A stretch of DNA of 64,000 nt from positions 2,880,001-2,944,000 of the forward strand of contig OZ242005.1 in assembly GCA_965204725.1 (NCBI GenBank). The letters run 5' to 3'. The notes below the pieces were generated by a model. It made no database searches. It was not told where the DNA came from and saw only the letters and a program-made list of their open reading frames with translations. A program made the translations under genes and the position numbers. The stretch's first letter is position 1, and each line of letters starts with the position of its first letter. This document shows positions 33,499 to 56,311 of this stretch, piece after piece. This DNA comes from Candidatus Latescibacterota bacterium (GTDB lineage Bacteria > Latescibacterota > UBA2968 > UBA8231).

Positions 33499-33623
33499 CT
33501 TACTACACGACACCAGCCGCTCGCCTTCCAAGGATCGAGGGCATCTTGCCCTCGTCGAGGGTGGGACGCCCTCGATCCCGGATGCAACGGGAGCCGTAGA
33601 AAAAGTAAGTGTCGCGTACTTAG
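33499..33623 (+). mobile_element. MITE, copy 3, with perfect 9-bp target-site duplication
   Basis: TIRs CTTACTACACGACAC / GTGTCGCGTACTTAG (12/15 inverted match); CTTTAACGC at 33490-33498 and 33624-33632; internal GC hairpins. Confidence 0.8.
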
Positions 33624-36807: not shown

Positions 36808-36903
36808 TAGCCCGAGGAGCCGCATCCGCTGCTAATTGACGCAATTTTTGCGTTCTACTACTCTTGCATAGAACATCCTCAGTTTAGCAAAAGGAATACC
36901 ACC

Positions 36904-37794
36904 ATGTTCGTCGTCCGTGCATTCGCGTCCATCGCCCTCGTCTTTCTTCCCCTCTCGGCTACAGCTCAGATTACCCTCTCTCCCGACGATTTACGCCTGC
37001 CCTTGGGCATGACTTGGGAACAAGAAATCGCCACAGCCCAAGGCAGCCTAGAAGACTCCGAATTCAACATCGGCACTACTGGTGCCGACCAATCCTTCGA
37101 CCTGACTAGCGTCCTCGCCAACAGTACGTCCATCCGCGCTCGCAGTTCGGTCATCCCGCTGGAGCAGGCCCCCAATGCCGCTCGCTTCCCCGACGCGGAT
37201 TACGCCGTCCACAACATTGTGACCGCGCCCAACGCCACCGGCACCCTTGAAGAGTTCGAGACGTACGACTATTTCCAGCGCAGTGCCGCAGGCGATGTTC
37301 TCGTCGGGAGCGAAGGACCGGCCGGACAAGTCCCCTTCCCGACTATCGATGTAGAAACGCCTTGGCCGCTGGAATTCGGCAAAAACTGGATGGTCGAAAA
37401 TCTCTCCTTGGACGAGACTATAGCACCGGGGCTAACACGTTCCGGCCTGCACGATTATCAATACGTCGTTGATGCATGGGGAGAGATTCGGCTACCAGCG
37501 GGCACCTTTGAGTGTCTGCGCCTCCACCAGACTGGCTCTGGCGTCGTTACCTTCACGGGCGACGCTCACCTCGAGTCGTTGGGCGAAGTGACAGCCGAGA
37601 TAGACGCCTATGTTTGGTATGCCCGCGGGATTGGCACCGTCGCCATAGTCGTAGAGACGAGGCAGACTTTCGCCAGCGGCAACATCCCGCCGACTACGAC
37701 CACTCAAGTCGCCCGCCTCACTGAGATATCCAGCCCGGCCAGCGCGATAGCCGCCACGAGTTGGGGAGCCTTCAAGCAAAAGTTCGCCGAATAG
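36904..37794 (+). CDS. Secreted protein with C-terminal 'ATSWGAFK' tail
   Basis: Signal peptide; 'VDAWGEIRLPAGTFECLR'; promoter TTGACG-N17-TACTCT upstream. Confidence 0.8.
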   Translation: MFVVRAFASIALVFLPLSATAQITLSPDDLRLPLGMTWEQEIATAQGSLEDSEFNIGTTGADQSFDLTSVLANSTSIRARSSVIPLEQAPNAARFPDADYAVHNIVTAPNATGTLEEFETYDYFQRSAAGDVLVGSEGPAGQVPFPTIDVETPWPLEFGKNWMVENLSLDETIAPGLTRSGLHDYQYVVDAWGEIRLPAGTFECLRLHQTGSGVVTFTGDAHLESLGEVTAEIDAYVWYARGIGTVAIVVETRQTFASGNIPPTTTTQVARLTEISSPASAIAATSWGAFKQKFAE

Positions 37795-37959
37795 ATTGAT
37801 TTACTGCCACTTGGTGTCGAGCAAGTACTCCTCTTATTGTTAGTAATCTCCTTCGTTGACACAATTTTCGCGTTTCACTATTCTTGCGTTACAGAGACCA
37901 TGACGAACCACTCTCGGTCTTTGTTGTCAACTATATGCTGCGAATACTGGAGGTCTGGC

Positions 37960-38202
37960 ATGAAGAACATCACTATCACTCTACCCGAGGATGTCGCCCG
38001 GTGGCTGCGGGTCAAAGCTGCCGAGAACGAGCGCAGTGTCTCCAAATGGCTGGCCGAACTGCTGGAAAGTATGAAGCGTCAGGAAGACGAGTATGAGGTC
38101 GCAATGAAGCGCTACTTGGCGATGAAGCCACGCGAGATCAACTGGCCGCAGGGCCGCAGGCCGACGCGCGAGGAATTGTATGACCGTCCCGGTCTTCGTT
38201 GA
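37960..38202 (+). CDS. Ribbon-helix-helix antitoxin (VapB-like)
   Basis: 'MKNITITLPEDVARWLRVKAAE..SVS', '..TREELYDR'. Confidence 0.8.
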   Translation: MKNITITLPEDVARWLRVKAAENERSVSKWLAELLESMKRQEDEYEVAMKRYLAMKPREINWPQGRRPTREELYDRPGLR

Positions 38203-38644
38203 CACGAATATCTTCGTTTACCGCCACGACAGCTCGGACCCGTCAAAGCAGGCTTGCGCCGAGCAATGGATCAGACTGCTCGCGCACAATCGCTCTGGTC
38301 GGCTGAGTTTTCAGGTACTTCAAGAACTCTACGTGAGTCTCACGCACGAACGGCGGCTGAATTTCGGTCGGTCAGAGGCCCAAGAGATCATCAAGGTACT
38401 CACAGCGTGGCAACCGGTAGCCGCTGACCTCGCGATGCTGAACCGAGCTTGGGTCTTGCAGGATCGCTTTCCCTTGTCTTGGTGGGATGCGCTCATCGTC
38501 GCCGCCGCGCAGACCTGCGAGTGCAGGGTTTTGCTGACCGAGGACCTGCAAGACGGTCAAGAGTTCGGCGCGGTTCGGGTGGTCAATCCGTTTGCCTCGC
38601 CGGACCGAACGCCGGAAGAGATACTGGCAGCTTTGGCGTCGTGA
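38180..38644 (+). CDS. vapC: PIN-domain toxin
   Basis: 'FVDTNIFVY', 'QVLQE', 'WDALIV', 'LLTEDL'. Confidence 0.9.
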   Translation: MTVPVFVDTNIFVYRHDSSDPSKQACAEQWIRLLAHNRSGRLSFQVLQELYVSLTHERRLNFGRSEAQEIIKVLTAWQPVAADLAMLNRAWVLQDRFPLSWWDALIVAAAQTCECRVLLTEDLQDGQEFGAVRVVNPFASPDRTPEEILAALAS

Positions 38645-38819
38645 GCGTTTGATTGTCGCACGGCCTCGTTCCCGTGTCGTCGGGCAGACTTTCGCCAGCG
38701 GCAACATCGCACCAACTACGACCACTCAAGTCGCCCGCCTCACTGAGATGCCCAGCCCGGCCAGCGCGATAGCCGCCACGAGTTGAGGAGCCTTCAAGCA
38801 AAAGTTCGCCGAATAGATT

Positions 38820-39218
38820 TTACTGCCACTTGGTTTGCACGTGTGGATAGGAGCGCAGCCGTTGGTCGGCGCTGATTAGCACTAGATTATGTACCCGCGC
38901 TGTGGCGACGATCATTTGGTCGGCTGGGTCTTTGTGGAAGGGACTCGGCAAATGCGCCGATTCGAGGGCTATATCCACCGTAAGGGGCAAAAGTTCTATA
39001 AACGGGGCTTGGGTGGCGCACTCAACCCACTGACGCACAGGCATAGATAAATGCAAGTGCCCCTTGGACTCTTTTTTCGCCACTTCCCAAGGACTGATCG
39101 CCGCTAGCCCAAAGGGCAAGTGATCCGGCTCCAGCAGCACCTCCCTGATCGGGGCGGGCAGCTTTTCCGGTGCCTCCAAGGCCCAGAGCCACGCATTGGT
39201 ATCGAGCAAGTACTTCAC
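38820..39218 (-). CDS. vapC: PIN-domain toxin
   Basis: 'YLLDTNAWLW', 'SPWE', 'HKDPADQMIVA'; GTG overlaps the antitoxin stop. Confidence 0.9.
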   Translation of the reverse strand: MKYLLDTNAWLWALEAPEKLPAPIREVLLEPDHLPFGLAAISPWEVAKKESKGHLHLSMPVRQWVECATQAPFIELLPLTVDIALESAHLPSPFHKDPADQMIVATARVHNLVLISADQRLRSYPHVQTKWQ

Positions 39219-39454
39219 TGGCAGGTTTCCCAATCATCTTCGCCGAGCGGTTCATCCCAACCGGGCTGGTACGCGACCGTATCTCGGAGCGAGCCGAAGA
39301 AGGATTGGGGGTCGGGTTTGGTCTCCGGCTCAGGGGGGACGACCTGCGCTATGACTTTGCCGCGATTGGTCAACTCCACGGTTTTGTATTTGGTGCCGAC
39401 TTCGCGCACGACTTGGGTGCATTTGGCTTTGAACTCGCTGATGGGCATCCGCAT
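39215..39454 (-). CDS. Phd/YefM antitoxin
   Basis: 'ISEFKAKC..LTNRGKVIAQVVP'. Confidence 0.88.
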   Translation of the reverse strand: MRMPISEFKAKCTQVVREVGTKYKTVELTNRGKVIAQVVPPEPETKPDPQSFFGSLRDTVAYQPGWDEPLGEDDWETCQ

Positions 39455-39466
39455 GGCCTCAACTCC

Positions 39467-39496
39467 TGACTATATAGTCATTTTATATGACTATAT
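39467..39496. promoter_or_regulatory. Operator palindromes of the phd-vapC operon
   Basis: Perfect TGACTATATAGTCA, overlapping ATATAGTCAT-N5-ATGACTATAT. Confidence 0.65.
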
Positions 39497-39540
39497 TAAA
39501 CGGCACACCGCCTGTTGTCAATAATCTCCGCAGTGCCCCG

Positions 39541-40824: not shown

Positions 40825-41291
40825 TACAGTTCGTCCCGCAGCCAGCGCGACAGGGCCTTGTCGGGCGCACTAATCTCCGCGAGCGAGGTGTAGTAATAGG
40901 CTTCCCAGCCGTCTTGCGGCAGGCCGGTGAACAGCATCAGGTTCAGGGGGTAGTTTTCCGAATCCGTGCAGCGGCGGAAGTCGTCGCGAAACAGGAAGGT
41001 CGGCTTGCCGAGGGCAATGGCCGCCCCCAGCTCGACCATCACCCCTTCGTCCGGGGGCGTCCCGTTGACAATGGCGAAGATCGCGTCGGCCTCAACCACG
41101 TCGCGCAAGTCTGCTTGGCCGACCGCATAGGCCCAGCCCGGCGCGGAAAAATCAACTTGGTTGTTGCGGGCAAAAGGCTCCCAGACTTCGGCCCCCAAGG
41201 CCCCTAACGCGGCGACAAACTGCGGCAAGAGCCGCTCCTTCCAATGAGGCGAGAATCCATAAGGACTAGCGAGATAGAGGGTCTTTTTCAT
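40824..41291 (-). CDS. Nucleoside 2-deoxyribosyltransferase family protein
   Basis: 'LYLASPYGFS', 'DEGVMVELG', 'NLML'. Confidence 0.85.
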   Translation of the reverse strand: MKKTLYLASPYGFSPHWKERLLPQFVAALGALGAEVWEPFARNNQVDFSAPGWAYAVGQADLRDVVEADAIFAIVNGTPPDEGVMVELGAAIALGKPTFLFRDDFRRCTDSENYPLNLMLFTGLPQDGWEAYYYTSLAEISAPDKALSRWLRDEL

Positions 41292-41384
41292 ATTCAACTC
41301 CAGCGTTGTGTATTATATGCTCTATATTCTGTAATATAGGCAGGGCAACGCAAATCTCTTACCTACAAAACGAGACGTCACCGC

Positions 41385-42419
41385 ATGGAAAAGCCAACCT
41401 TCATCCTCCGCGAAAACATCCCCCTCGCTTCCCTCACCACCATGGGCCTCGGCGGCCCGGCGCGCTATTTCGCCGAGTGTACCACGCTACCTGATATGCG
41501 CACCTGCTTGATGTGGGCGCTGGGCGAGGGCCTGCCCGTGCAAGTGATCGGCGGCGGCAGCAACGTGCTGTTTGCCGACGCGGGCTACCGCGGCTTGGTG
41601 CTCAAAATGGGCTTCACCGGCATGACCTTCTCCGGCGATACCGTTGAGGTCGCGGCGGGCGAGGACTGGGACGGCTTTGTGCAGTGCTGCGTGGAGCGCG
41701 GCTTGGCCGGCGTCGAATGTCTTTCGGGCATCCCCGGGTCGGTGGGTGGGACGCCCATCCAAAACGTGGGTGCTTATGGCCAAGAAGTAAAAGACACCAT
41801 CGTGGAAGTGCGCGCCCTCGACCGGCTGACCCTGTCGGAAACCTCGTTTGCCCCGGCCGAATGCGACTTTGCCTACCGTCAGAGCCGCTTTAAGGGGGCC
41901 AACGGCGAGCGCTTTATCGTGACCTCGGTGACGTATCGCTTGGATCCCAGCGGCCAGCCGCAAATCCGCTACCCCGAGCTGCGCCGGCACCTAACCGACG
42001 CCCAGCCGACCTTAGCCGCAGTGCGCGACGCAGTGCTCGGGCTCCGCCGCAGCAAGTCCATGGTCATCGACCCGCAAGACCCCAACTCCCGCTCGGTCGG
42101 CTCTTTCTTCCTCAACCCAGTCGTCAGCGCGGCCGCTTTTGCCGCCTTGCAGGACCGCTATCCGAGTGTCCCGCACTTTCCCGATGCGGCTGGCGTCAAA
42201 GTCCCGGCCGCTTGGCTCGTGGAGCAAGCGGGGTTTCACAAGGGGCTGCAAAGGGGCGGGATTGGCATTTCAGAGCGGCACGCGCTGGCCTTAGTCAATC
42301 GCGGCGGCACGACCCGCCAAGTCCTCGCCTTGGCCGGTGAAATTCGGGATGCGGTCGAGCAAACCTTTGGCATCCGGCTGGTGCAGGAGCCGGTGTTGGC
42401 GGAGGAGCCTCGGCCGTGA
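41385..42419 (+). CDS. murB: UDP-N-acetylmuramate dehydrogenase
   Basis: 'GGGSN', 'IPGSVGGTPIQNVGAYG', 'GSFFLNP', 'HALALVN'. Confidence 0.95.
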   Translation: MEKPTFILRENIPLASLTTMGLGGPARYFAECTTLPDMRTCLMWALGEGLPVQVIGGGSNVLFADAGYRGLVLKMGFTGMTFSGDTVEVAAGEDWDGFVQCCVERGLAGVECLSGIPGSVGGTPIQNVGAYGQEVKDTIVEVRALDRLTLSETSFAPAECDFAYRQSRFKGANGERFIVTSVTYRLDPSGQPQIRYPELRRHLTDAQPTLAAVRDAVLGLRRSKSMVIDPQDPNSRSVGSFFLNPVVSAAAFAALQDRYPSVPHFPDAAGVKVPAAWLVEQAGFHKGLQRGGIGISERHALALVNRGGTTRQVLALAGEIRDAVEQTFGIRLVQEPVLAEEPRP

Positions 42420-44935
42420 ACGAGGCAACCGCTCGTCGCAAGATCGACCGGCTGCTCGAAAACGCGGGGTGGCGCTTCTTCGACAGCGACGACGGGCGAG
42501 CCAATATCCGCTTGGAAGCGCAGGTCGCCCTCCAGCGCGACGACCTCGACCGCTTGGGCGACGATTTCGAGCGTTCCGGCCGAGGGTTCGTCGATTTCCT
42601 GCTCCTCGACGACCGGGGCTTTCCGTTCATCGTGTTGGAGGCCAAGTCCGAGGCCAAAGACCCCCTCGTCGGCAAGGAGCAGGCCCGCCGCTATGCCCGC
42701 TCGCTAGACTGCCGCTTCGTCCTCCTCTCCAACGGCAACCTGCACTACTTCTGGGACTTAGAGCGCGGCAACCCGCATATCATCACCGCGTTTCCAACGC
42801 CGGACTCGGTGGAAGGATACAAACAGATCGTTCCCAACCCGCAGCGTCTGATCGATGAACAGGTTGGTGCCGACTACATCGCCCTCACGCAGCGGCCCAA
42901 CTATGCGGCCGAGGCCGGGTGGCGCGACGAGGCCGAGCGACCCGGCTACATCGAGACGCACGGGCTGCGCTTTTTGCGCGACTATCAGGTCCGAGCGATC
43001 CATCGTTTGCAGCGGGCCGTCCGCGACGGGCGCGACCGCTTCCTGTTCGAGATGGCGACCGGCACCGGCAAGACGCTGGTGGCCGCGGCCGTCATCAAGC
43101 TGTTTCTCCGCACTGGCAACGCCCGCCGCGTCCTCTTCTTGGTCGATCGGTTGGAGCTGGAAGACCAAGCGGCGCGCAAGTCCTTCGTCCCGTACTTGAC
43201 TCCCGACTTCGACGCAGTCATCTACAAGGAAAAACGCGACGACTGGCGTCGGGCACACATCGTGGTGTCCACCGTTCAGTCACTGCTGTTCAATAACAAG
43301 TACCAAGCGCAGTTTTCGCCCACGGATTTCGACTTGGTGATTTCGGACGAGGCGCACCGCTCCATCAGCGGCAACGCCCGCGCCGTATTCGATTACTTCG
43401 TCGGCTACAAGCTGGGGCTGACGGCTACGCCCCGCGACTTTCTCAGAGGCATCCAAGCGACCGACCCGCGTGCGGTGGAGCGCCGGTTGCTGCTCGACAC
43501 CTACCGCACCTTTGGCTGCGAGCGGGGCGAGCCGACGTTTCGCTACTCCCTGCTCGACGGGGTGCGCGATGGGCATCTGGTCAATCCTCGGGTCATTGAC
43601 GCACGCACCGAGGTGACCACCCAACTGCTCGCCGCCGAGGGCTTTGTGGTGTCTTTCACCGATGACGAAGGCGAGCAACAAGCGGAGGCGTTCAAACGAC
43701 GCGATTTCGAGCGGGCGTTCTTCTCGGAAGCCACCAACGCGGTCTTTTGCCGGACCTTCCTAGAGAATGCGCTCCGCGATCCGATTAGCGGGGAGGTCGG
43801 CAAATCCATCGTCTTCGCCGTGAGCCAGACCCACGCGGCCAAGCTAACGCAGCTATTCAACCAGATCGCCGACCGCATGTTTCCGGGCCGGTATCAGTCG
43901 GACTTTGCAGTGCAAGTCACGTCGCACGTTGCGGACGCCCAGCAATTCGCGGTCAACTTTGCCAACAACAACCTCTTGGGGGCTGGCAACTTCATGCGTG
44001 AGTACCGGACGAGCAAGGCGCGGGTCTGCGTAACCGTCGGCATGATGACCACCGGCTACGACTGCACAGACATTCTCAATTTGGGCCTGTTCAGGCCGAT
44101 ATTCTCGCCGACCGACTTCGTCCAGATCAAGGGGCGCGGCACGCGCAAACACAACTTCCTCGACCTTATGATCGGGCACCGCACCACCGGCGACGCCGCG
44201 CCAGAAAAGACCACCTTCAAGCTGTTCGACTTCTTCGGCAACTGCCAATACTTCGAGACCGAGTTCAACTACGACGAGGTATTGGAACTGCCGCGGTTGC
44301 GCGATAGAAGCGGCGAGCGAGGGGACGAGCCAAGGCCGGTTGTATATGCTGGCCCCTACGAGCACTTGGGGAGCGACTTTCTCTCGACGATTGAGCAAGC
44401 GCAGATCGGGGCCGAGGGGATGAGAATTGACCGGATGTTTTTCGACCGCTTTGCCGACGAGGTGCGCGAAAACGACTTCATTGCCCAAGCCGTTGAAGCG
44501 GGCCAATGGGATCGCGCCATTGACTATGTAAATCGAGAAGTCTTTGACCAGCCCGAGGAGTACTACACCCTCTCCAAGCTGCGCCAAGCCGCGGCCGTGG
44601 ATCGCCGCGTGAGCTTGCGCGAGATACTGGAGAAGGTCTTTGACCTCATCCCGCGTTTTAAGTCGAGAGACGAGTTGCTCGAAGAGGAGTTCGCCAAATT
44701 CGTGGCGGATTACAAGCCCGACGAAGCGGCGTCTGTCGCGGCGATTCGGGCGTACTTCAAGGCGTATCTGACCAGCGGCCGAACCCGAGACATCATTGAG
44801 AACCGGACCTTCACCGAACTGGCGACCAATCCGGCCTTTTCCTCCCGCGACTTTCGCGCCGTGCCGGTGCCATACCGCGCCCTCGTTCCCGAGTATGTCA
44901 AGGATTACGTGTCTCTGAATCAGTTCGCCGTTTAG
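42416..44935 (+). CDS. hsdR: Type I restriction subunit R
   Basis: 'VDFLL..LEAK' nuclease, 'MATGTGKT', 'DEAHRS', 'QIKGRGTR'. Confidence 0.9.
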   Translation: MNEATARRKIDRLLENAGWRFFDSDDGRANIRLEAQVALQRDDLDRLGDDFERSGRGFVDFLLLDDRGFPFIVLEAKSEAKDPLVGKEQARRYARSLDCRFVLLSNGNLHYFWDLERGNPHIITAFPTPDSVEGYKQIVPNPQRLIDEQVGADYIALTQRPNYAAEAGWRDEAERPGYIETHGLRFLRDYQVRAIHRLQRAVRDGRDRFLFEMATGTGKTLVAAAVIKLFLRTGNARRVLFLVDRLELEDQAARKSFVPYLTPDFDAVIYKEKRDDWRRAHIVVSTVQSLLFNNKYQAQFSPTDFDLVISDEAHRSISGNARAVFDYFVGYKLGLTATPRDFLRGIQATDPRAVERRLLLDTYRTFGCERGEPTFRYSLLDGVRDGHLVNPRVIDARTEVTTQLLAAEGFVVSFTDDEGEQQAEAFKRRDFERAFFSEATNAVFCRTFLENALRDPISGEVGKSIVFAVSQTHAAKLTQLFNQIADRMFPGRYQSDFAVQVTSHVADAQQFAVNFANNNLLGAGNFMREYRTSKARVCVTVGMMTTGYDCTDILNLGLFRPIFSPTDFVQIKGRGTRKHNFLDLMIGHRTTGDAAPEKTTFKLFDFFGNCQYFETEFNYDEVLELPRLRDRSGERGDEPRPVVYAGPYEHLGSDFLSTIEQAQIGAEGMRIDRMFFDRFADEVRENDFIAQAVEAGQWDRAIDYVNREVFDQPEEYYTLSKLRQAAAVDRRVSLREILEKVFDLIPRFKSRDELLEEEFAKFVADYKPDEAASVAAIRAYFKAYLTSGRTRDIIENRTFTELATNPAFSSRDFRAVPVPYRALVPEYVKDYVSLNQFAV

Positions 44936-44942
44936 GAACCGC

Positions 44943-45036
44943 TATTCACGCATTTATCCAGAAAAACCGTGAATGGAACCCATTTTTCGCGGTCTATTCA
45001 CGGATATTTGACAATATAGCGTGAATACGATACCAT
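44943..45036 (+). promoter_or_regulatory. fic promoter with two inverted-repeat operators
   Basis: TATTCACG-N17-CGTGAAT at 44943-44974 and 44995-45027; TTGACA(45008)-N17-TACCAT(45031). Confidence 0.7.
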
Positions 45037-45042
45037 AACGAT

Positions 45043-45933
45043 ATGGCGACTACGCAGCCGATAAGAAACCGCATCCAGGGGCTGAAGCGGGCGTACGATG
45101 CCTTGCGCCGAGGCAAGGAATCGCTGCTGTCGATGATCGACGAAGTGGAGATACCAGAGCATGTGTACAACTCGAACGCGATTGAGAATTCAACTCTTAC
45201 GCTCGAGGAGACAGAGCGAGTCCTGTTGGAGCAGATGTTGTCCCGAAATGTGTCTGTGCGGGAATTATTTGAGGCGAAAAATCTAGCCCGCGTCACAGAA
45301 TACAAACGGGCTAAAGTTAAAGATAGCGAGCTGAACAAAGACCTGATACTGCTCTTACATAGGATGCTCATCGGCGGCATTAACGATGCCATCGCCGGTC
45401 GCTTTCGCCAGCAGGGGGAATACGTGCGGGTGGGTACTCATATCGCGCCGGCACCCGAACATGTAGAGCGCATGATAGACGACATTCTCATCGAGTATTC
45501 CAGCGATCTCAGCACCTATTTCCTCGATAAAATTGCCCGATTTCACTTGGATTTTGAGGGCATCCATCCCTTTTGCGACGGCAATGGTCGCTTGGGGCGG
45601 GTTCTCATCAATTTTCAACTCCTCCAGCACGGGCTGCCGTGCCTTATTATTCGCAACTCGGAAAAGGAGCGGTACTATCAGGCGTTTAGGAGCTATGAGA
45701 ACCGCCAAACGACTCGGGCGATGGAAGAGATTTTGGCGTTAGGGCTCGTGGAGGCGCTACACAAGCGGTTGGGTTATTTACAGGGGGAGGCCATTATCCG
45801 GCTATCAGACTATATCAAGCAGCATGGCCTCTCAGCACCGATGGTCACGAACGCCGCCCGTCGCCAGACTATCCCCGCTTTTCGCGAGAAGGGAGTGTGG
45901 AAAATCGGGGCGGAATTCGCGTACCGGAGCTAG
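45043..45933 (+). CDS. Class II Fic protein with C-terminal HTH
   Basis: Inhibitory 'SNAIEN', catalytic 'HPFCDGNGRLGR', HTH_17-like tail. Confidence 0.9.
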   Translation: MATTQPIRNRIQGLKRAYDALRRGKESLLSMIDEVEIPEHVYNSNAIENSTLTLEETERVLLEQMLSRNVSVRELFEAKNLARVTEYKRAKVKDSELNKDLILLLHRMLIGGINDAIAGRFRQQGEYVRVGTHIAPAPEHVERMIDDILIEYSSDLSTYFLDKIARFHLDFEGIHPFCDGNGRLGRVLINFQLLQHGLPCLIIRNSEKERYYQAFRSYENRQTTRAMEEILALGLVEALHKRLGYLQGEAIIRLSDYIKQHGLSAPMVTNAARRQTIPAFREKGVWKIGAEFAYRS

Positions 45934-45934
45934 T

Positions 45935-46015
45935 ATGCTCGACACTGCGACCAAACGCCGCATTGACACGACCCGCGACATCCTCGTCGCTGAACCAGTT
46001 CGTGGCAGGGTCTAA
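45935..46015 (+). pseudogene. Stub: first 55 bp of hsdM fused to an hsdR-like 3' end
   Basis: 45935-45989 matches 46484-46538; then TCGCTGAACCAGTTC (SLNQF) resembles hsdR 44912-44926. Confidence 0.75.
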
Positions 46016-46032
46016 CTCAAACGAGAGGTGGA

Positions 46033-46242
46033 ATGATGAGACAAGTCGTTGTTTATCCCGGCGAAGATGGGTATTGGGTTGCTGAATGTCCCAGCTTGTT
46101 GGGCTGCATCAGTCAAGGAAAAACGAAGCAGGAAGCCATTGCCAACATCAAAGAGGCCATTGAAGGATACGTCGCATCTCTTGAGGAAGACGGACTGCCC
46201 GTTCCCGAAGAACACTTTGAGGCCATGGTCGTGGCCGTATGA
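46033..46242 (+). CDS. hicB: HicB antitoxin
   Basis: 'YWVAECPSLLGCISQGKTKQEAIANIKEAI'. Confidence 0.9.
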   Translation: MMRQVVVYPGEDGYWVAECPSLLGCISQGKTKQEAIANIKEAIEGYVASLEEDGLPVPEEHFEAMVVAV

Positions 46243-46460
46243 GTAGTCTGCCGAGAATTTCAGGGCGGAACTGTGCCAGAGCTCTCAGTAAAATTGGATT
46301 TCGCCTGAGACGGCAGCGTGGCAGTCATATAATTTTGCGTCGAGACAATCCTTTCTCTCAGGTCGTTGTTCCCGATCATAAGGAACTGGACAGAGGCACT
46401 TTGCGAAGCATTATCAGACACGTAGAGATCAGTGTAGAAGATTTTGTGAAACTGTTATAG
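46239..46460 (+). CDS. hicA: HicA toxin
   Basis: 'RQRGSH', 'VPDHKELDRGTLRSI'. Confidence 0.9.
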   Translation: MSSLPRISGRNCARALSKIGFRLRRQRGSHIILRRDNPFSQVVVPDHKELDRGTLRSIIRHVEISVEDFVKLL

Positions 46461-46483
46461 CCGCATTCGACCGGAAAACGACT

Positions 46484-48994
46484 ATGCTCGACACTGCGAC
46501 CAAACGCCGCATTGACACGGCCCGCGACATTCTCGTCGGCAAGGTGCCCGATCCCAAAAGCCAAGTGGAGCAGATCACCATCGCGCTCATCTACAAGTTC
46601 ATGGACGACATCGACGCTGAGAGCGAGGAGTTGGGGGGGCAGCGCACGTTCTTTGCCGGCGAATTTGCCGGCTATGGGTGGGCTAAGCTGATGCGAGCCG
46701 GCTTGGGCGGCCACGAAATGTTGAACCTATACGCCGAGGCCATTGCGCGGCTGCCGGAAAACCCAGGCATGCCGCCGTTGTTCCGCAGCATTTTCAACAA
46801 CGCCTATCTTCCCTACCGCGACCCGGAGACCTTGCGCGCCTTCCTCAAGGTCGTTGACGAGTTTACGTATGATCACAGCGAGCGGCTGGGCGACGCCTTT
46901 GAGTATCTGCTGTCGGTGCTGGGCTCGCAGGGCGACGCCGGGCAGTTTCGCACGCCGCGCCATATCATCGACTTCATGGTCGCCGTCGTTGACCCTCAGA
47001 AAGACCAAACGGTGCTCGATCCGGCCTGCGGCACGGCCGGGTTCTTGATTTCGTCGTACAAGCACATTCTCAAGGCCAACACCGACGCCGAGGGGCACAG
47101 TACGCTGACGCCCGACGAAAAGGGGGCACTCGCGGCCAATTTCAGGGGCTATGACATTTCGCCCGATATGGTGCGGCTGTCGCTGGTGAATCTGTATCTG
47201 CACGGCTTTGTCGAGCCGCATATTGCCGAATACGATACCCTGACCAGCGAGGAGCGCTGGAACGAGTATGCCGACGTGATTTTGGCGAATCCGCCGTTTA
47301 TGTCGCCCAAGGGCGGCATTCGTCCGCACAACCGCTTTTCGGTTCAGTCCAAGCGCAGCGAAGTGCTGTTTGTCGATTACATTGCCGAGCATCTGACGCC
47401 GGCGGGGCGGGCGGGGGTCATCGTGCCGGAGGGCATTATCTTTCAGAGCCAGCGTGCTCACAAGCAGTTGCGGAAGATGCTGGTTGAGGAGTATCTCGTC
47501 GCGGTGGTGTCGTTGCCGGCGGGGGTGTTTCAGCCTTATTCGGGGGTTAAGACGTCTATTCTGCTGCTGGACAGATCGCTTGCGACAAAGACCGAGCACA
47601 TTGCCTTTTTCAAGGTGGAGAACGATGGGTTTGATTTGGGGGCGCAACGGCGGGAGATTGCCGAGAATGATTTGCCGAAGGTGAAGGAGGAGCTTGGCGA
47701 ATACTTGCGCCGTTTGCACATAGGAGAATCCGTGGCAGATTTCGCGCCAACGTTGGGACTGGTCAGTAAAAAAGAAAGAGTTGCAGAGGGTGGGGAATAC
47801 AATCTGAGCGGGGAAAGGTATCGGGAGAGTGGAACAAGGCAGTCTGATTGGCCGGTGGTCTCGTTAGGAGAGCAAGAGATTTTCAGCGTTGAAAGTGGTG
47901 GCACACCTAAATCAGGGGTCAAGGAATACTGGAATGGTGGCGTCCCCTGGATCACGCTGGTTGACTTGCCGACAGGCGATTTCATCACAGAAATTACTGA
48001 CACACAGAGGACGATAAGCGAGAAGGGTTTGCGGAACTCGGCTGCAAAGATGCTTCCTGCCAACTCTGTTGTCGTTTCATCAAGAGCGACCATTGGTCGA
48101 ATCGGTATCAATCGCATACCTCTCGCCACCAACCAAGGCTTCAAAAATGTCGTCATCAAGGATATAAATAGGGCAATTCCTGAATACGTTGCATTGGCAT
48201 TGACGAAATTGGTGCCGACAATGCAAGCCCAAGCCAGCGGCTCAACTTACAAAGAAATTATCAAGTCAAGGTTCAGTGAACTACGCATCCCTTTGCCGAC
48301 ACTGGAAGTCCAGCGAGAAATCGTCGCGGAGATTGAGGGCTATCAGCAGGTGATAGAGGGGGCGCGGGCGGTGGTCGAGAACTATCGGCCGCATATTGCG
48401 ATTGATCCACAGTGGCCGATGGTGGCGATTGGAAAAACCTGTATTGTGAATCCGCGAAAATCAGAACTCGCCGGACTCGATGAGTCAACGACTGTTTCAT
48501 TCGTACCTATGGCAGATATGGACGAAGGTACAATGTATTTTGCCCCAAAGGATTGCAAATGCCTGAAAGAGGTTGGTTCCAGCTATACCTATTTCAAGGA
48601 CGATGACGTGCTGATTGCAAAAGTGACGCCGTGTTTTGAAAACGGCAAAGCGGGAATTGCAAAAGGCTTGAGTAATGGAATCGGCTTCGGCTCAAGCGAG
48701 TTCTATGTTTTGAGGCCGTCGGAGGCCGCGCTTCCCGAATGGATTTTCCTATGCGTAGCCACGCCAGCCTTCCGTGCATGGGCGACGCCCCGAATGACAG
48801 GAACCGGCGGCTTGCAACGAGTTCCGAGGTCAGTGATAGAAAATTACAAAATCCCTCTGCCATCATTGACAATACAACAAGCCATCGTCACCGAGATCGA
48901 AGTGGAGCAATCTCTCGTTGTTGCCAACCGGGAGTTGATGGAGCGGATGGAGGAGAAGATTCGGACGGCGATTGGGCGGGTGTGGAACGGTTAA
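46484..48994 (+). CDS. hsdM: Type I N6-adenine methyltransferase fused to a two-TRD specificity subunit (HsdM-HsdS)
   Basis: 'GQFRTPR', 'LDPACGTAGF', 'NPPF'; two TRDs, each ending 'IPLP.L..Q..IV.EIE'. Confidence 0.92.
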   Translation: MLDTATKRRIDTARDILVGKVPDPKSQVEQITIALIYKFMDDIDAESEELGGQRTFFAGEFAGYGWAKLMRAGLGGHEMLNLYAEAIARLPENPGMPPLFRSIFNNAYLPYRDPETLRAFLKVVDEFTYDHSERLGDAFEYLLSVLGSQGDAGQFRTPRHIIDFMVAVVDPQKDQTVLDPACGTAGFLISSYKHILKANTDAEGHSTLTPDEKGALAANFRGYDISPDMVRLSLVNLYLHGFVEPHIAEYDTLTSEERWNEYADVILANPPFMSPKGGIRPHNRFSVQSKRSEVLFVDYIAEHLTPAGRAGVIVPEGIIFQSQRAHKQLRKMLVEEYLVAVVSLPAGVFQPYSGVKTSILLLDRSLATKTEHIAFFKVENDGFDLGAQRREIAENDLPKVKEELGEYLRRLHIGESVADFAPTLGLVSKKERVAEGGEYNLSGERYRESGTRQSDWPVVSLGEQEIFSVESGGTPKSGVKEYWNGGVPWITLVDLPTGDFITEITDTQRTISEKGLRNSAAKMLPANSVVVSSRATIGRIGINRIPLATNQGFKNVVIKDINRAIPEYVALALTKLVPTMQAQASGSTYKEIIKSRFSELRIPLPTLEVQREIVAEIEGYQQVIEGARAVVENYRPHIAIDPQWPMVAIGKTCIVNPRKSELAGLDESTTVSFVPMADMDEGTMYFAPKDCKCLKEVGSSYTYFKDDDVLIAKVTPCFENGKAGIAKGLSNGIGFGSSEFYVLRPSEAALPEWIFLCVATPAFRAWATPRMTGTGGLQRVPRSVIENYKIPLPSLTIQQAIVTEIEVEQSLVVANRELMERMEEKIRTAIGRVWNG

Positions 48995-49096
48995 TCTACC
49001 AAGATAACATAAGATGAATATGTATATTTCTCAAGTATCAGGACGGCAGATTCCGGCAACTCTTGAAATCCTTTTTGGCGAGGTTTCTACAATCAA

Positions 49097-52687: not shown

Positions 52688-52749
52688 ACCATCTGTTTGG
52701 CTACTGAACCGTGGGCAAGGAGAAGCAAATGAATAACCGCAAAGAGACC

Positions 52750-52950
52750 ATGATGAGGTACAAAATTGCCCTTCACCAATCTGACGAAGGCTACAGTGTG
52801 TCGATCCCCGGCTTTCCGGGCTGTTGGTCCGAGGGAAGAACAGAAGAAGAAGCCCTCGTTAATATCGAAGCCGCCATTCGAGAATATCTCAGCGTAGTAG
52901 AAGACCTTTTGAAGGATGCCGAAGTCCGAGAAATCGAACTGGCTGTATAA
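52750..52950 (+). CDS. hicB: HicB antitoxin
   Basis: 'GYSVSIPGFPGCWSEGRTEEEALVNI'. Confidence 0.88.
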   Translation: MMRYKIALHQSDEGYSVSIPGFPGCWSEGRTEEEALVNIEAAIREYLSVVEDLLKDAEVREIELAV

Positions 52951-52952
52951 AC

Positions 52953-53165
52953 ATGCCCAAGATTCCGGGCGTCAATCATCTTAACGCGGTGCGAGCTTTG
53001 GAAAAAGCAGGCTTTCGCATTGCACGTCAGGGCAAGCACATCGTCATGACGGATGGAGTGCGTATTCTGACTGTTCCAAGAAACAACCCTGTTAATGCCT
53101 TTACTATGGGGGGTATTGTAAGAGACGCAGGATTAACCGTTGAAGAATTCCGTGATCTTTTGTGA
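52953..53165 (+). CDS. hicA: HicA toxin
   Basis: 'RALEKAGF..RQGKH..TVPR'. Confidence 0.88.
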   Translation: MPKIPGVNHLNAVRALEKAGFRIARQGKHIVMTDGVRILTVPRNNPVNAFTMGGIVRDAGLTVEEFRDLL

Positions 53166-53269
53166 TGGAACGTGTTGATGTGTGAAAGAATTTATCAGAG
53201 GTTCTGGTGGTGGAGAGGTTCGTACTCGATCCGTATCCACCGCGAGATAAGTGATAGGATATTGCGTAA

Positions 53270-53389
53270 ATGAATTGGCCGATCCGAAAGAGGTGCTCCC
53301 ATGAAATCCATATCCTTGCAGATCACCTATCGAAAGGGCAAGCCCTTCGCGGCTTATCAGCGGAGTTAGAGCCACTCAGAGCGGCCTAA
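53270..53389 (+). pseudogene. Deleted DUF4258/DUF2283-like TA pair, copy 1
   Basis: 'MNWP' joined to 'PKEVLP*'; then 'MKSISLQITYRKGKPFAAY' joined to 'SAELEPLRAA*'. Confidence 0.55.
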
Positions 53390-53486
53390 CTGTTCTTCTC
53401 ACCTCTGCGGTGGGTCTGCGGTACTCATGCACAGATAGATGGGGTGTTCTTCGTAGATAAGCTCATCGCGGTCACACGATTCTGGC

Positions 53487-53515
53487 TTGACCTCTGGTCG
53501 GGAATATACTATACT
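53487..53515 (+). promoter_or_regulatory. Sigma-70 promoter upstream of DUF5131
   Basis: TTGACC-N17-TATACT. Confidence 0.55.
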
Positions 53516-53632
53516 TATGTTCAGTTATTTATTGCGAACCGGAGGGATGCTACGCAGATTGCCAAGCGTATGCTGATTTGCGCGTAACATCCGCTAGTCA
53601 GTAAATGCAGAATGGACACGGGAGCCGACGGC

Positions 53633-54469
53633 ATGTCTCGCAAAAGCACCATTGAATGGACCAACAGCACTTGGAACCCGGTCACCGGTTGCACAAAGGT
53701 GAGTGCGGGATGCGACCATTGCTATGCCGAACGCCTTTCCGAGCGTTTTCGCGGCGTCAAGGGCCATCCTTTTGAGACCGGCTTTGATCTCACCCTGCGG
53801 CCCGAGCGTATCAAGCAACCCTTGCGCTGGCGGCGTCCACAACTCGTCTTCGTCAATTCGATGAGCGATCTTTTTCACAAGAACATTCCCACCGAGTACA
53901 TCGCCCGCGTATTCGACACAATGGAACGCGCCGATTGGCACATCTATCAGGTGCTAACCAAGCGCAGTTCGCTGATGCGCGATTTCGTCCATCAGCACTA
54001 CCGGGGACAAGCCGCGCCCCCGCATATCTGGCTCGGCGTCTCGATTGAAAACGCCGCGGCCATGACGCGCCTGCGACACTTGAAACAGACCAACGCCTCT
54101 GTGCGCTTCGTCTCGTTCGAGCCGCTGCTCGGCCCCCTCGGCGCGGTAAATTTGGAGGGCATTCACTGGATCATCGCCGGCGGCGAGAGTGGGCCGGGTG
54201 TGCGTCCGATGCAAATAGAGTGGGTGCGCGCCTTACGCGATCAGTGCCAAGCCCAGCGCGTCGCCTTCTTCTTTAAGCAGTGGGGTGGGCGCACCCCCAA
54301 AACAGGCGGCAATACGCTCGACGGACGCCAATGGTTGGAATATCCGCGAGTGGAATCTGAGCAGCAACTTGGCATGCCGTTACAAGTGGCTGGAGTACCA
54401 AAAGACGATGCAAACGATGTGCCCGACGTTGGCCCTTGGGCGAGGGAGAAACTGAGGCGTGTTCAGTAG
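53633..54469 (+). CDS. DUF5131 (phage Gp37/Gp68, three-Cys motif) protein
   Basis: 'IEWT..TWNPVTGCTKVSAGCDHCYA', 'FVNSMSDLFH', 'FFFKQWGG'. Confidence 0.9.
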   Translation: MSRKSTIEWTNSTWNPVTGCTKVSAGCDHCYAERLSERFRGVKGHPFETGFDLTLRPERIKQPLRWRRPQLVFVNSMSDLFHKNIPTEYIARVFDTMERADWHIYQVLTKRSSLMRDFVHQHYRGQAAPPHIWLGVSIENAAAMTRLRHLKQTNASVRFVSFEPLLGPLGAVNLEGIHWIIAGGESGPGVRPMQIEWVRALRDQCQAQRVAFFFKQWGGRTPKTGGNTLDGRQWLEYPRVESEQQLGMPLQVAGVPKDDANDVPDVGPWAREKLRRVQ

Positions 54470-54529
54470 AATCAAGTGCGACACGTTGCTTTTATCGACG
54501 GTTCACGGCACAGAGAAAACCCTGCTTGA

Positions 54530-54766
54530 GCTTGGCGCGTAGTTGTCGAGCTCGATCTAGACGACGAGCCTCTTGCCATTGTAACCGCATATCCGCAAGA
54601 GGTGCTCCCATGAAATCCATATCCTTGCAGATCACCTATCGAAAGGGCAAGCCCCTCGCGGCTTATATTCACCTCGCTTCCAATAGATGAAATCCAGCGC
54701 GTTTTTGAACTTCTAGGTCTCGATAAACCGGCATCAGCGGAGTTAGAGCCACTCAGAGCGGCCTAA
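54530..54766 (+). pseudogene. Deleted DUF4258/DUF2283-like TA pair, copy 2
   Basis: 'WRVVVELD..LAIVTAYPQEVLP*' overlapping 'MKSISLQITYRKGKPLAAYIHL' and a later 'IDEIQRVFELLG..ELEPLRAA*'; 54597-54807 repeats 53288-53430 with 68 extra bp. Confidence 0.6.
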
Positions 54767-55000
54767 CTGTTCTTCTCACCTCTGCGGTGGTTGTGCGGTG
54801 CTCATGCTTCGGGCGGCGATTGGACGTGTCGAAGGGGAGGGGGAATAGGCTAAAAGCCAAGCGGGCAAGGCTGTTGACAACCGACAGTGCTTCGGATAAA
54901 TTGATCTCACATGGACTGCAACAGAGTATCCTATCCGCAGAGCAGGATCTTAAAGGCATGTCTGTTTTTTAGCGGTTTAACCAATTAGGAGGTAGCCGTC

Positions 55001-55201
55001 ATGTGTGACAGGACTAAAAAAGAAAAAACCTCAGATGATTATCTGAAAACTTTGGAGCGGGTCAAAAAGCAATACCAGCAGTATGTGGAAATCAGTGACC
55101 TTTATACCTTGCCGATTCAGCAAGAGGAGGAGCCGATACAATATCAGCCTCCTAGCTTGGAAAATCCCCTGACGACAAATACAACTAGTATCCGTCAATA
55201 A
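55001..55201 (+). CDS. Small hypothetical protein upstream of the Clp-fold protease
   Basis: SD AGGAGG; promoter TTGACA(54874)-N17-TAAATT. Confidence 0.6.
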   Translation: MCDRTKKEKTSDDYLKTLERVKKQYQQYVEISDLYTLPIQQEEEPIQYQPPSLENPLTTNTTSIRQ

Positions 55202-55213
55202 AACGGAGTGAAT

Positions 55214-56194
55214 ATGGCTTCTTGGAGTGAACTCCTGAGCGCATTGCATGCTCATGCTCAGAACGACCCTAATTGGCTTGATAAAAAACTGCAAGAGCAT
55301 TTGACCACTATCTCAACGCATCGCAAGAATGCTACCGTTATCTTCTACGCATCGGGTTTTTTGCAAAAGGCCGCCGATAATGTGCTCATTGACAGAGAAG
55401 ATATTAACGGGTTCATGAACGCGCTTTACAAAGCACAAAAAAATAAAAATCTCACATTGATACTTCATACTCCTGGCGGAGACCCGAACGCCGTTGAAAG
55501 CATCGTTGAGTACCTACATTCAAAGTTTGATTATATTGAAGTAATCGTACCTTATCTAGCAATGTCTGGCGGCGCGATGATAAGTCTGGCAAGCAATCTT
55601 TTGATACTCGGCAAACAGGGCCAACTGGGACCTATTGACCCTCAGCTAGTCACTGGCAACAAAACGCACTCAGCGAGGGCGATCCAAGAAGGGTTTAGCA
55701 AGGCGAAAGAGGATATTGAAAACGACACGAGATTAGCACATCTTTGGGCACCCATTTTACAAAATATGGGACCTTCACTGGTTTTGGAAGCGGATAAAGC
55801 TTTGTCGTACAGTAAAGAATTGGTCGTCAACTGGCTCAATAAAAGGATGTTCAAGGATATAGATAAGAAAAAAAGAAAAAAGAGAGCGGATACCATTGCA
55901 GCCTATTTTAACGCTGAACGTACCTCTGGTCATGACCAAATTCATGTTCATGGTCAAAGAATTGGAGTGACAAAACTTAAAGAGCTCGGGATCAAGCTGG
56001 AACTTCTTGAAGATGACCAGTCATTACAAAATGATGTTTTGACTGCATACCACTTGATGACCTTGATTTTTGAGATGACACCTTCCTTAAAAATCATCGC
56101 CAGTGATGCAGGAAAAATGTGGGTTAAACAAGAACAGCAAGTTCTTGTTCCAGCCTCCCTGCCTACCCCTCAACCCCCCCTCAACAATCCTTAA
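55214..56194 (+). CDS. SDH_sah / Clp-fold serine protease
   Basis: 'LILHTPGG', 'AMSGGAMI', 'LGPIDPQ', distal His in 'HVHG'. Confidence 0.85.
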   Translation: MASWSELLSALHAHAQNDPNWLDKKLQEHLTTISTHRKNATVIFYASGFLQKAADNVLIDREDINGFMNALYKAQKNKNLTLILHTPGGDPNAVESIVEYLHSKFDYIEVIVPYLAMSGGAMISLASNLLILGKQGQLGPIDPQLVTGNKTHSARAIQEGFSKAKEDIENDTRLAHLWAPILQNMGPSLVLEADKALSYSKELVVNWLNKRMFKDIDKKKRKKRADTIAAYFNAERTSGHDQIHVHGQRIGVTKLKELGIKLELLEDDQSLQNDVLTAYHLMTLIFEMTPSLKIIASDAGKMWVKQEQQVLVPASLPTPQPPLNNP

Positions 56195-56207
56195 ACTCAT
56201 AGGGCGA

Positions 56208-56269
56208 GCGCATCCCCAAAACGGGCGGCAATACACTCGACGGACGCCAATGGTTGGAATATCCGCGAG
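56208..56269 (+). repeat. Second copy of the DUF5131 3' region
   Basis: Matches 54289-54350 with 3 mismatches in 62 bp. Confidence 0.9.
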
Positions 56270-56311
56270 CGCAACGCACCCAACAACTCTGTGCTGAAGA
56301 AAAGGAAGGCA

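Follow-up and report, generated by a model that had tools for sequence, protein, structure and literature searches.

Tandem joining and reciprocal deletion as the probable origin of direct repeats around toxin–antitoxin and defence genes in a Candidatus Latescibacterota genome

Introduction

How defence islands and toxin–antitoxin (TA) arrays grow without visible mobile-element genes is an open question; the default model, homologous replacement at core-gene flanks, cannot explain arrays that are additive. The question is posed here by a stretch of 64 000 nucleotides (the window; G000:C1:2880001-2944000) from the genome of an uncultured sponge-associated bacterium of Candidatus Latescibacterota (G000; 5.43 Mb in two contigs, GC content 0.60). 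A preliminary description of the window had proposed that at three loci two versions of one neighbourhood lie head to tail, each with different cargo and with the redundant genes reduced reciprocally to stubs. The repeats that mark these copies are indeed present at all three places (direct repeats of 56–155 bp with 93–97% identity in self-comparison), and the recurrence goes further than was proposed, with a fourth site, hisI/pncA, just beyond the three loci and many more genome-wide. The inserts within the window are 0.5–5.9 kb long and carry no mobile-element genes recognized by Pfam or PADLOC. Single-copy 'empty' states exist in congeners at all four sites. One relative, G019, has them at each of the four, and in it the repeat aligns just once at locus 1, at locus 2 and at hisI/pncA. 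We propose that each site probably records the fusion, in tandem and head to tail, of two versions of a short interval, followed by deletion of the redundancy. Compared with a relative, the result is an insertion flanked by a long, imperfect target duplication, an architecture that matches both the known 'insertion with long target duplication' and the arrays of orphan modules at loci for Rhs, for contact-dependent growth inhibition (CDI) or for the type VI secretion system (T6SS).

Methods

Coordinates are window positions, with values above 64000 being window-equivalent positions past the window end, and genes lie on the forward strand unless stated otherwise. G-numbers other than G000 denote relatives, and the searches for single-allele states covered 30 congeneric genomes. 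Open reading frames (ORFs) at the sites were annotated using Pfam and PADLOC. In the genome-wide self-comparison, repeats of 40–450 bp with at least 90% identity and a separation of 0.3–8 kb were retained; 31 pairs were checked for open frames and 20 further regions were annotated (132 greedy ORFs). Junctions were checked in Logan contigs, which are de Bruijn contigs, of four runs from four studies (X14, X16, X1 and X17); X14, which contains a fraction of 0.96 of the sampled words, is possibly the source sample. The public runs that contain the stretch are labelled as sponge or marine metagenomes.

Repeats and stubs in the window

At locus 2, 56 nt of the 5′ end of hsdM are present twice (45934–45989 and 46483–46538, 96% identity) and flank a hicBA pair. 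The gene for the type I restriction subunit, hsdR (42416–44935; Pfam ResIII and HSDR_N, PADLOC REase_I), is followed by a Fic/DOC gene (45043–45933; Pfam Fic, PADLOC PDC-S04 and SoFic), the cargo of the first slot copy, which ends with the 56-nt hsdM stub at 45934–45989. The cargo of the second slot copy is the hicBA pair (46033–46460; hicB, 46033–46242, Pfam HicB_lk_antitox; hicA, 46239–46460, Pfam HicA_toxin), after which comes the fused type I methylase–specificity gene hsdMS1 (46484–48994; Pfam N6_Mtase and Methylase_S, with PADLOC support). An allele of the form hsdR-hicBA-hsdM, as predicted in the preliminary description, would leave a 3′ stub of hsdR ahead of hicB, and this stub is present: 17 nt at 45986–46002, of which 16/17 match the hsdR 3′ end of G007 and 15/17 that of G000 itself, overlap the hsdM stub by 3–4 nt (GTC/GTCG) and open the second slot copy. 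The direct joining of the hsdM stub, of just 56 nt, to an hsdR 3′ end points to two hsdR-to-hsdM slots in tandem, a fic slot and then a hicBA slot. Single-copy states exist, as had been expected: G019 and many other species carry hsdR, fic and hsdM with the 56-nt segment once, and the hsd locus lacks hicBA in G019 and in most relatives. The other expected state, hsdR-hicBA-hsdM, was not found in the 30 congeners.

Relatives carry variants of this stack. The hsdM/hsdR joint is shared by G046, in which the stub has a further 15-bp internal deletion. An independent stack is present in G007, where hsdM(1–365) is joined to the last 74 bp of hsdR and is followed by ~2 kb of other sequence, a conserved leader element and full hsdM, and in G001 the order is hsdR, leader and hsdM-S(a), then leader, fic and hsdM-S(b). 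As a separate observation, G046 retains an eroded hsd island remnant at the native murB site (G046:C13:624496-626472), in which 140 bp of the hsdR 5′ end are joined to 656 bp of the hsdM 5′ end, plus fragments; its complete hsd island lies 4.9 Mb away (G046:C13:5527935-5542687) behind genes for proteins with a type IX secretion system (T9SS) signal, with no recombinase in the four upstream ORFs scanned.

At the fourth site, a 65-nt repeat (62278–62341 and 68155–68219, 97% identity) surrounds a 5.9-kb insert. Its first copy (62278–62341) comprises the hisI 3′ end, the intergenic region and the first pncA codons and is present once in G019 and G007, where hisI adjoins pncA. The insert contains a 136-bp fic 3′ stub (62365–62500), the start of the pruned fic-to-pncA copy, which belongs to a 192-nt match of 98.4% to 45798–45989, and then hsdMS2 (62502–64000 in the window, ending at 64937 past it; Pfam, PADLOC), which is 97.7% identical to hsdMS1 over 1500 nt. 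These are followed by two genes (x and y), one with a PD-Lambda-5_A-like N-terminus, by a C5 methylase gene (Dcm), by a 49-nt NYN 3′ stub (96% to 59843–59891), and finally by ~140 nt that match the 5′ end of ADH and the region between ADH and hisI (81% to 61703–61861), the second repeat copy (97%) and pncA. With its methylase–specificity gene and C5 methylase, the insert has no restriction gene that is recognized by Pfam or PADLOC. The order of its stubs is that of fic ... NYN, ADH, hisI and pncA in the upstream 16.5-kb interval, which indicates that the insert is a pruned second copy of the whole interval. G046 has a more eroded version of the stack in its own hisI/pncA region, which makes the event an old one.

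At locus 1, the repeat (37661–37815 and 38683–38834, 155 nt, 94% in self-comparison) flanks a ribbon–helix–helix (RHH) and PIN pair. Gene A (36904–37794; 296 amino acids), which belongs to no Pfam or PADLOC family and has orthologues at 79–87% in relatives, is intact in the first copy; the repeat at 37661–37815 consists of its 3′ end (137 bp) and an 18-bp PIN 3′ stub (37798–37815) and is found once in G019. The pair between the repeats is of the vapBC type (37960–38644; RHH 37960–38202, PIN toxin 38180–38644; Pfam RHH_5 and PIN) and constitutes the cargo of the second copy; it is 88–89% identical to the vapBC that follows an ABC ATPase in G003, G010 and G021. The second repeat (38683–38834, from self-comparison) joins a 137-bp gene A 3′ stub (38683–38819) to an intact PIN toxin gene (38820–39233), which together with a Phd/YefM antitoxin gene (39215–39454) occupies 38820–39454 on the reverse strand (Pfam). 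This PIN gene is convergent to gene A, and the orthologous gene A/PIN junction is uninterrupted in G019. The first copy is therefore gene A followed by a PIN stub, and the second a gene A stub followed by intact PIN/Phd, with vapBC between them.

The sole vapBC remnant of the first copy is a promoter/leader stub directly after the ABC ATPase (36836–36868). It is identical at 27/33 positions to 37856–37888, ahead of the intact vapBC, and is contiguous with the intact ATPase–promoter–vapBC arrangement of G046; the spacers upstream of the two promoters do not align. There are only two copies of this 33-mer in the genome, and its candidacy as a conserved cassette-start motif or shared site was rejected on this count. 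The unstacked unit occurs in the closest relative, G046, as ATPase, promoter, vapBC, gene A, a partly deleted PIN with Phd, and glcF. On sequence grounds, locus 1 reads as two ATPase–vapBC–geneA–PIN units head to tail, of which the first would have lost vapBC and PIN/Phd and the second most of gene A. In other relatives the vapBC, gene A and PIN/Phd cassettes occur in cyclically permuted orders and as stubs: gene A, PIN/Phd and a vapB-like gene in G019; a gene A stub, PIN/Phd and vapBC in G001; gene A, a ~85-bp PIN stub and vapBC in G023; PIN/Phd, a vapBC remnant, the 3′ half of gene A and vapBC in G044; and gene A, gene A and PIN/Phd in G042, where the two tandem gene A copies are full.

The gene A/PIN junction of G007 holds another insert, of ~930 bp (G007:C2:4150001-4150932), placed exactly after TTAC without a duplication and carrying a gene for a lipoprotein of the Phage_VG64 family as well as the remnant of a TnpB TNB domain. 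This is an IS200/IS605-type event in that relative and not in G000, and it makes the same junction a hotspot for a second kind of insertion, that of true mobile elements. IS200/IS605 involvement in G000 was considered and rejected, as the TTAC-precise insert is confined to G007 and G000 has no TnpB domain.

At locus 3, two repeats (53282–53357 and 54591–54666, 97%; 53356–53430 and 54733–54807, 96%) are accompanied by a further one (54283–54350 and 56202–56269, 93%). The first two correspond to remnants of one DUF2283 gene, which is intact in G046 (89 amino acids, Pfam DUF2283). By sequence comparison, remnant A (53282–53430) lacks 179 bp internally relative to G046 and remnant A′ (54591–54807) lacks 113 bp internally, and between them lies a DUF5131 gene (53612–54469; PADLOC PDC-M41B/M30B). 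The cargo of the second copy is a 66-residue ORF with an SDH-type ClpP-like serine protease gene (55001–56194; Pfam SDH_protease), after which a DUF5131 stub of 68–73 nt (56202–56274) is homologous to 54283–54355 in self-comparison. This ORF–protease cassette is missing from the five relatives compared (G019, G046, G023, G001 and G007). Ahead of the locus is the second hicBA pair of the window (52711–53165; Pfam); in G023 and G001 an AAA_15 gene follows hicBA almost directly, and in G019 and G046 the DUF5131 cassette lies inside or beside the hicBA pair, with hicBA duplications of their own (~79 bp in G019 and ~260 bp in G046).

The defence island to which these genes belong spans 42 to 60 kb (Pfam, PADLOC). 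Besides the type I hsdR, the Fic gene (PDC-S04/SoFic), the fused hsdM-S, the two hicBA pairs, DUF5131 (PDC-M41B/M30B) and the SDH-type protease, it holds a 1196-residue PIN_12 protein with a Dsr1-like C-terminal part, an AAA_15 and DUF3226 pair (AbiLi/PDC-M38A and B) and a HipA-like and HIRAN pair (PDC-M03A and B).

Distribution across the genome

Self-comparison of the whole genome gave 51 short repeat pairs at 0.3–8 kb. The unique repeats of C1 are uniformly direct at short range (37 direct and 0 inverted at 0.3–8 kb; 5 direct and 0 inverted at 8–16 kb), while those more than 128 kb apart comprise 28 direct and 32 inverted pairs. Some close pairs are conversion tracts between tandem paralogues, such as the ABC permeases at 34513/35736. 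In this instance two MacB-like permease genes that are otherwise ~72% alike share a 120-nt tract (34513–34632 and 35736–35855) at 99% identity, which suggests gene conversion; the tract pair is kept in G007, G023 and G046 (96.7–98.3%).

TA, restriction–modification (RM), abortive-infection (Abi), TIR or nuclease genes lie between the repeats in 11 of the 20 further regions. These are Trypsin_2 with ThsB-TIR behind a glycogen-debranching gene with a 297-bp 3′ stub (0.066 Mb), an MmeI-type RM system with a helix–turn–helix gene (0.60 Mb), SLFN/AlbA_2 (0.85 Mb), two unknown genes inside a type ISP RM system with a 3′ duplication (1.14 Mb), DUF2442/DUF4160 (1.76 Mb), a beta-CASP nuclease with an unknown gene (3.54 Mb), AbiEi/AbiEii (3.90 Mb), DUF5615/DUF433 (4.10 Mb), Mrr (4.52 Mb), three TIR genes with 8xMP (4.76 Mb) and PIN with a FitA-like RHH (5.32 Mb). 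The remaining nine comprise three regions with ankyrin-repeat genes and six with other or unknown genes. DDE transposases adjoin two sites (0.864 and 4.64 Mb), which may be related to insertion sequences (ISs). At the 5.32-Mb vapBC site, G004 and G043 represent empty sites with the repeat once; the 0.066-Mb stub was not found in G046, G014 and G042, which share the debranching gene and the cargo.

The ankyrin-repeat genes between direct repeats lie at G000:C1:110000-115500, 1632500-1635500 and 2657500-2661500, one of them fused to a Ser/Thr kinase, and a leucine-rich repeat (LRR) protein adjoins the debranching-enzyme stub at 0.066 Mb. The gain of such eukaryote-like proteins seems to follow the same path as that of the defence genes.

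Junctions and strain variants

The preliminary description had itself named one danger, that an assembler might concatenate strain haplotypes. This is countered by contigs of X14 that cross the joints without a single difference: one (37768–38744) spans both joints of locus 1, another (45941–46512) both joints of locus 2 and a third (55099–56265) the protease/stub joint of locus 3. The left joint of hisI/pncA is seen at a loose contig end in the same run; among the contigs listed for X16, X1 and X17, none spans the joints of G000. The structures of locus 2 and hisI/pncA are moreover shared by G046, another species, which argues that the stacks are not assembly artefacts, and analogous stacks are present in G007, G001, G042 and G045.

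The other runs reveal that pruning is polymorphic among strains, with either a longer remnant or further deletions. A strain in X1 has 484 extra letters at 36867/36868, corresponding to less pruning in the first copy of locus 1, and in both X1 and X17 position 38867 is joined back to 38270 and position 38312 is joined to 39526. Further variant joins in these data connect 45026 to 45984 through 13 letters (X1) and 55160 back to 53582. In those alleles of G001 and G007 that lack fic, the native leader begins with these 13 letters. The X1 contig was tried as a pure hicBA-only allele and rejected, since the native leader letters are followed by the same hsdM/hsdR joint. In X14 the summed contig depths range from ~30 to 340 between core and cargo segments; such depth is not a copy number, and the differences hint at co-resident variants.

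Origin of the repeats

The tandem joining that we consider probable could proceed as follows. A single illegitimate unequal crossover, with an overlap of a few bases at most, would join a late point of one copy to an early point of the other, and deletions would then remove the duplicated content, leaving stubs of 17–300 bp. Content that differs between the copies, such as a TA pair, a specificity subunit or a defence gene, would be kept. Since the duplication usually spans a gene start or stop, the gene concerned stays intact. On sequence grounds we favour copies that already differed when they were joined, namely the resident allele and that of a co-resident strain. The two copies carry unrelated cargo, an hsdR stub of 17 nt would not have sufficed to direct homologous replacement at a later time, the identities of the paired segments form a mosaic (81–98%) and the spacers of the vapBC promoters do not align, all of which argue for copies that differed from the start. 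The capture of relatives' alleles, as put forward in the preliminary description, is favoured by the unrelated cargo and the short stub, but the single alleles that it predicts were not found in the 30 congeners.

More speculatively, DNA uptake may deliver the second allele, and addictive cargo (TA, RM) may bias the survivors towards stacking over replacement. Handa and Kobayashi reportedly performed experiments on the resistance of RM genes to replacement. The survey for competence genes that had been suggested gave homologues of ComEC, DprA and ComEA, but the same families match 10–11 of 14 control genomes. The preliminary description invoked homology-facilitated illegitimate recombination (HFIR), with one homologous anchor and one microhomology joint. 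Locus 2 has one novel joint with a 3–4 nt overlap, the other boundary being the natural hicA–hsdM junction, and its donor allele is unobserved; loci 1 and 3 and hisI/pncA show additional deletion joints. Scoring of junction microhomology was confined to one resolvable joint, at which it amounts to only 3–4 bp.

Several observations weigh against the explanation favoured here. Neither an hsdR-hicBA-hsdM nor a fic-hsdMS2-x-y-Dcm-NYN single allele was found in the 30 congeneric genomes, and the X1 form that joins 45026 to 45984 is better read as a further-pruned stack than as the predicted single hicBA allele. The repeat copies of locus 1 are mutually closest (131/137, 95.6%, versus at most 128/137, at most 93%, to any relative). 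At each of the six differing positions it is the stub that has the derived state, since 19 of 21 sequences from relatives have the copy 1 state at all six columns, and this divergence fits in-situ duplication with neutral decay equally well as it fits a very close donor. At the fourth site, hsdMS1 and hsdMS2 are 97.7% identical, yet the same stack occurs in G046, with orthologues that are 90–92% alike. That the two genes resemble each other more than the orthologues of G000 and G046 do points to gene conversion, so repeat divergence is no clock, and dating by this means was abandoned. The 3–4 nt overlap at the resolved joint barely exceeds chance, and the read support comes from de Bruijn contigs only.

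An unlikely alternative is tandem duplication in situ between sister chromosomes, giving identical copies that then underwent random loss and later turnover of cargo, with no foreign allele at the time of joining. It would account for repeat copies that are each other's closest matches with all differences on the stub, the cyclic permutations of vapBC, gene A and PIN/Phd are what duplication and random loss would be expected to produce, and G042, with its two full tandem gene A copies, has the form of such a duplication. However, extra events are needed to explain cargo as unrelated as fic and hicBA or as the gene set of the 1196-residue protein and x-y-Dcm, and at locus 2 later replacement would have had only the 17-nt hsdR stub as left homology; nor do promoter spacers that fail to align, or a paired segment that is only 81% identical, fit copies that began as identical.

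Campbell-type insertion–duplication, in which a cassette circle carrying a piece of a host gene integrates by a single RecA-dependent homologous crossover, appears improbable as a general explanation. Collinear stubs of distant genes, as in the hisI/pncA insert, and a neighbour-gene stub, as at the hsdM joint, are not predicted by it, and no circular joints were seen, although they were not specifically sought. The 56–65 bp of homology available are also short for a RecA-mediated crossover. What the model does explain, by one novel joint, are the simple repeat–cargo–repeat cases, such as AbiE at 3.90 Mb and vapBC at 5.32 Mb, and repeats of variable length that span gene ends are also expected from it. 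The part of the work of Furuta et al. (2010; PMC2853133) that concerns such insertions proposes a cycle in which insertion is followed by amplification through the repeats and then by release.

A site-specific recombinase acting in trans might insert islands with replacement gene ends, for which e14 and phage 21 at icd in Escherichia coli are the model, or an integron-like mechanism might operate; the repeats do extend across the 3′ or 5′ ends of genes without disrupting them, and the TnpB-remnant element of G007 demonstrates that mobile elements use the gene A/PIN hotspot. We nevertheless regard recombinase action as highly improbable. The preliminary description had seen no integrase, attC site or transposase, and this holds for the ORFs scanned between 31.9 and 74.5 kb, in which there is neither an integrase nor a transposase. 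The shared recombinase site or IS end that might have been expected at the junctions was also sought and not found. Across 24 sites the junctions share no 8-mer above random sets, the repeat lengths vary from 56 to 297 bp, and the terminal inverted-repeat scores of the inserts (first and last 60 nt), at 5–9, lie within the control values (mean 6.8, 95th percentile 9); no attC-like inverted repeats rise above control at the 24 inserts, no dedicated attC covariance model having been run. Absence of a transposase from the sites, absence of terminal inverted repeats and a duplication length that is not fixed are likewise at odds with a DNA transposon or IS.

The genome as a whole has three tyrosine recombinases (Phage_integrase; 0.72, 1.69 and 3.17 Mb), none of them in or near the sites and all more than 200 kb from the window, and no Resolvase (serine recombinase), rve or TnpB TNB domain; its DDE_Tnp_1 matches number 25, of which none is in the window. 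No Ku, the marker of non-homologous end joining (NHEJ), was found in the genome, from which little follows as Ku matches only 1 of 14 control genomes.

An assembly artefact, in which the assembler concatenated the haplotypes of co-resident strains, comes to mind since the genome is metagenome-assembled and the X14 depths hint at co-resident variants, but it is practically dismissed by the difference-free contigs across the joints of loci 1, 2 and 3, by the recurrence of the locus 2 joint and the hisI/pncA stack in G046 and by the analogous stacks of the four other relatives named above.

Comparison with known systems

The closest precedent is the 'insertion with long target duplication' of RM genes (Furuta, Abe and Kobayashi, 2010; PMC2853133), for which Nobusato et al. 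(2000) is cited there. As presented in the sections of that paper that deal with these insertions, the repeats are long, variable and imperfect (for example, 44/46, 384/412 and 417/423), often span start or stop codons and occur once at the empty site; there are no mobility genes, most cases come from naturally competent species and the mechanism is given as unknown, with an RM property such as double-strand breakage suggested. The present sites agree in having repeats longer than 30 bp (56–155 bp and 65 bp in and beside the window; 56–297 bp over 24 sites), inserts shorter than 20 kb and no mobility genes. They differ in that no insert with both R and M genes is seen at loci 1–3 or at hisI/pncA, a property that serves in those sections as a search criterion rather than as a mechanistic feature. 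The cargo is mostly non-RM (vapBC, hicBA, AbiE, TIR genes, DUF5131, a protease and ankyrin proteins), which argues against a common RM property such as double-strand breakage as the driver. A second difference is that the inserts described here hold stubs of neighbouring genes in chromosomal order, leading to the idea of tandem joining; no such stubs appear in those sections of PMC2853133.

Orphan arrays that arise by displacement, among them Rhs C-terminal displacement, CDI orphan modules and T6SS effector–immunity arrays in Vibrio cholerae, are built in a comparable fashion: a module is added at a conserved anchor, and its predecessor is shifted downstream but retained, along with a leftover of the conserved gene. 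The relevant sections of Kirchberger et al. (2017; PMC5361080) propose an HFIR-like mechanism for the orphan immunity arrays and note the same idea for Rhs and CDI loci. The same sections draw the comparison with an integrase-free integron that is drawn here. Growth of an integron-like kind without a recombinase, as claimed in the preliminary description, is consistent with the lack of any recombinase signature, but the idea had in kind already been published (PMC2853133, PMC5361080), to judge from those same parts of the two papers. As these arrays are portrayed there, one conserved toxin gene is involved and immunity value ensures retention, whereas here many unrelated host genes act as anchors, with their 5′ as well as their 3′ ends, and TA or anti-phage genes make up the cargo.

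Transformation of Streptococcus pneumoniae can also produce tandem duplications, through alternative pairing of a donor fragment and unequal crossing-over of chromatids (Johnston et al., 2013; PMC3784515). In the part of that study on merodiploidy, intact and altered copies of a gene can coexist, as they do here; the pneumococcal duplications are 100–900 kb long and bounded by IS-derived repeats, in contrast to units of 0.5–17 kb joined at non-repeated sequence. Integrons likewise accumulate small promoter-poor or self-contained cassettes, often TA, at one place; unlike them, the present sites have no IntI, attI or attC, their junctions are host gene stubs and the nearest tyrosine recombinase is more than 200 kb away. 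TA islets without mobility genes that erode frequently and spread by replacement at core-gene flanks have been reported (Belot et al., 2026; PMC13617665, in its account of these islets). That model, in the form given there, replaces an interval with no target duplication, whereas here both the resident and the incoming contents are kept. A topical literature search gave no publication in which TA or defence cargo is accompanied by collinear stubs, although no search was aimed at this exact combination.

Neighbouring features

Other repeats in the window stand apart from the sites. Small multi-copy intergenic repeats of 55–120 nt lie at 7959–8074, 24442–24513 (inverted) and 33498–33623; two more of this kind, L134:1015-1080 and L134:4830-4909, have many copies at 92–97% identity in G000 and its relatives. 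From their sequence, the small intergenic repeats may resemble miniature inverted-repeat transposable elements (MITEs) or repetitive extragenic palindromes (REPs). Upstream of the three loci there are also a 184-nt tandem repeat (22615–22798 and 22795–22978, 87% identity) and a pair of paralogous genes (25910–26767 and 28137–28994, 70% identical).

Just past pncA/pncB a phage-like cluster (70850–74537) encodes a terminase large subunit, an HNH endonuclease, a major capsid protein and a prohead protease, with no integrase nearby. It may represent either a degraded prophage or a particle akin to a gene transfer agent, which would carry pieces of the chromosome from one strain to another. Single-contig genomes of the genus have completeness values of ~93–95% and contamination scores of 6–13%, values that probably reflect lineage-specific duplications and absences of markers and not real contamination.

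Implications

Annotators should be aware that the stubs at such sites readily pass for small ORFs or for errors of assembly. About 30 species of the genus have been sequenced, many with closed genomes, providing dozens of fresh scars in which the stubs record the order of events, and public metagenomes contain variants from co-resident strains, so that population genomics can put the mechanism to the test.

In this uncultured sponge-associated bacterium, the apparent addition of genes without a recombinase, already described for restriction systems, carries a phenomenon of RM and polymorphic-toxin genes over to an uncultured phylum and to genes of the TA, Abi, TIR and eukaryote-like kinds. It is possible, though we put this forward tentatively and would sooner expect a narrower role, that stacking and pruning without a recombinase, through crossover with a co-resident allele, reciprocal deletion and a filter imposed by addictive cargo, is the main route of accessory-gene gain genome-wide in the lineage. 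If so, it would provide a general, cargo-independent mechanism for the 'long target duplication' of Kobayashi's group and would constitute an integron-like array builder that needs host recombination only.

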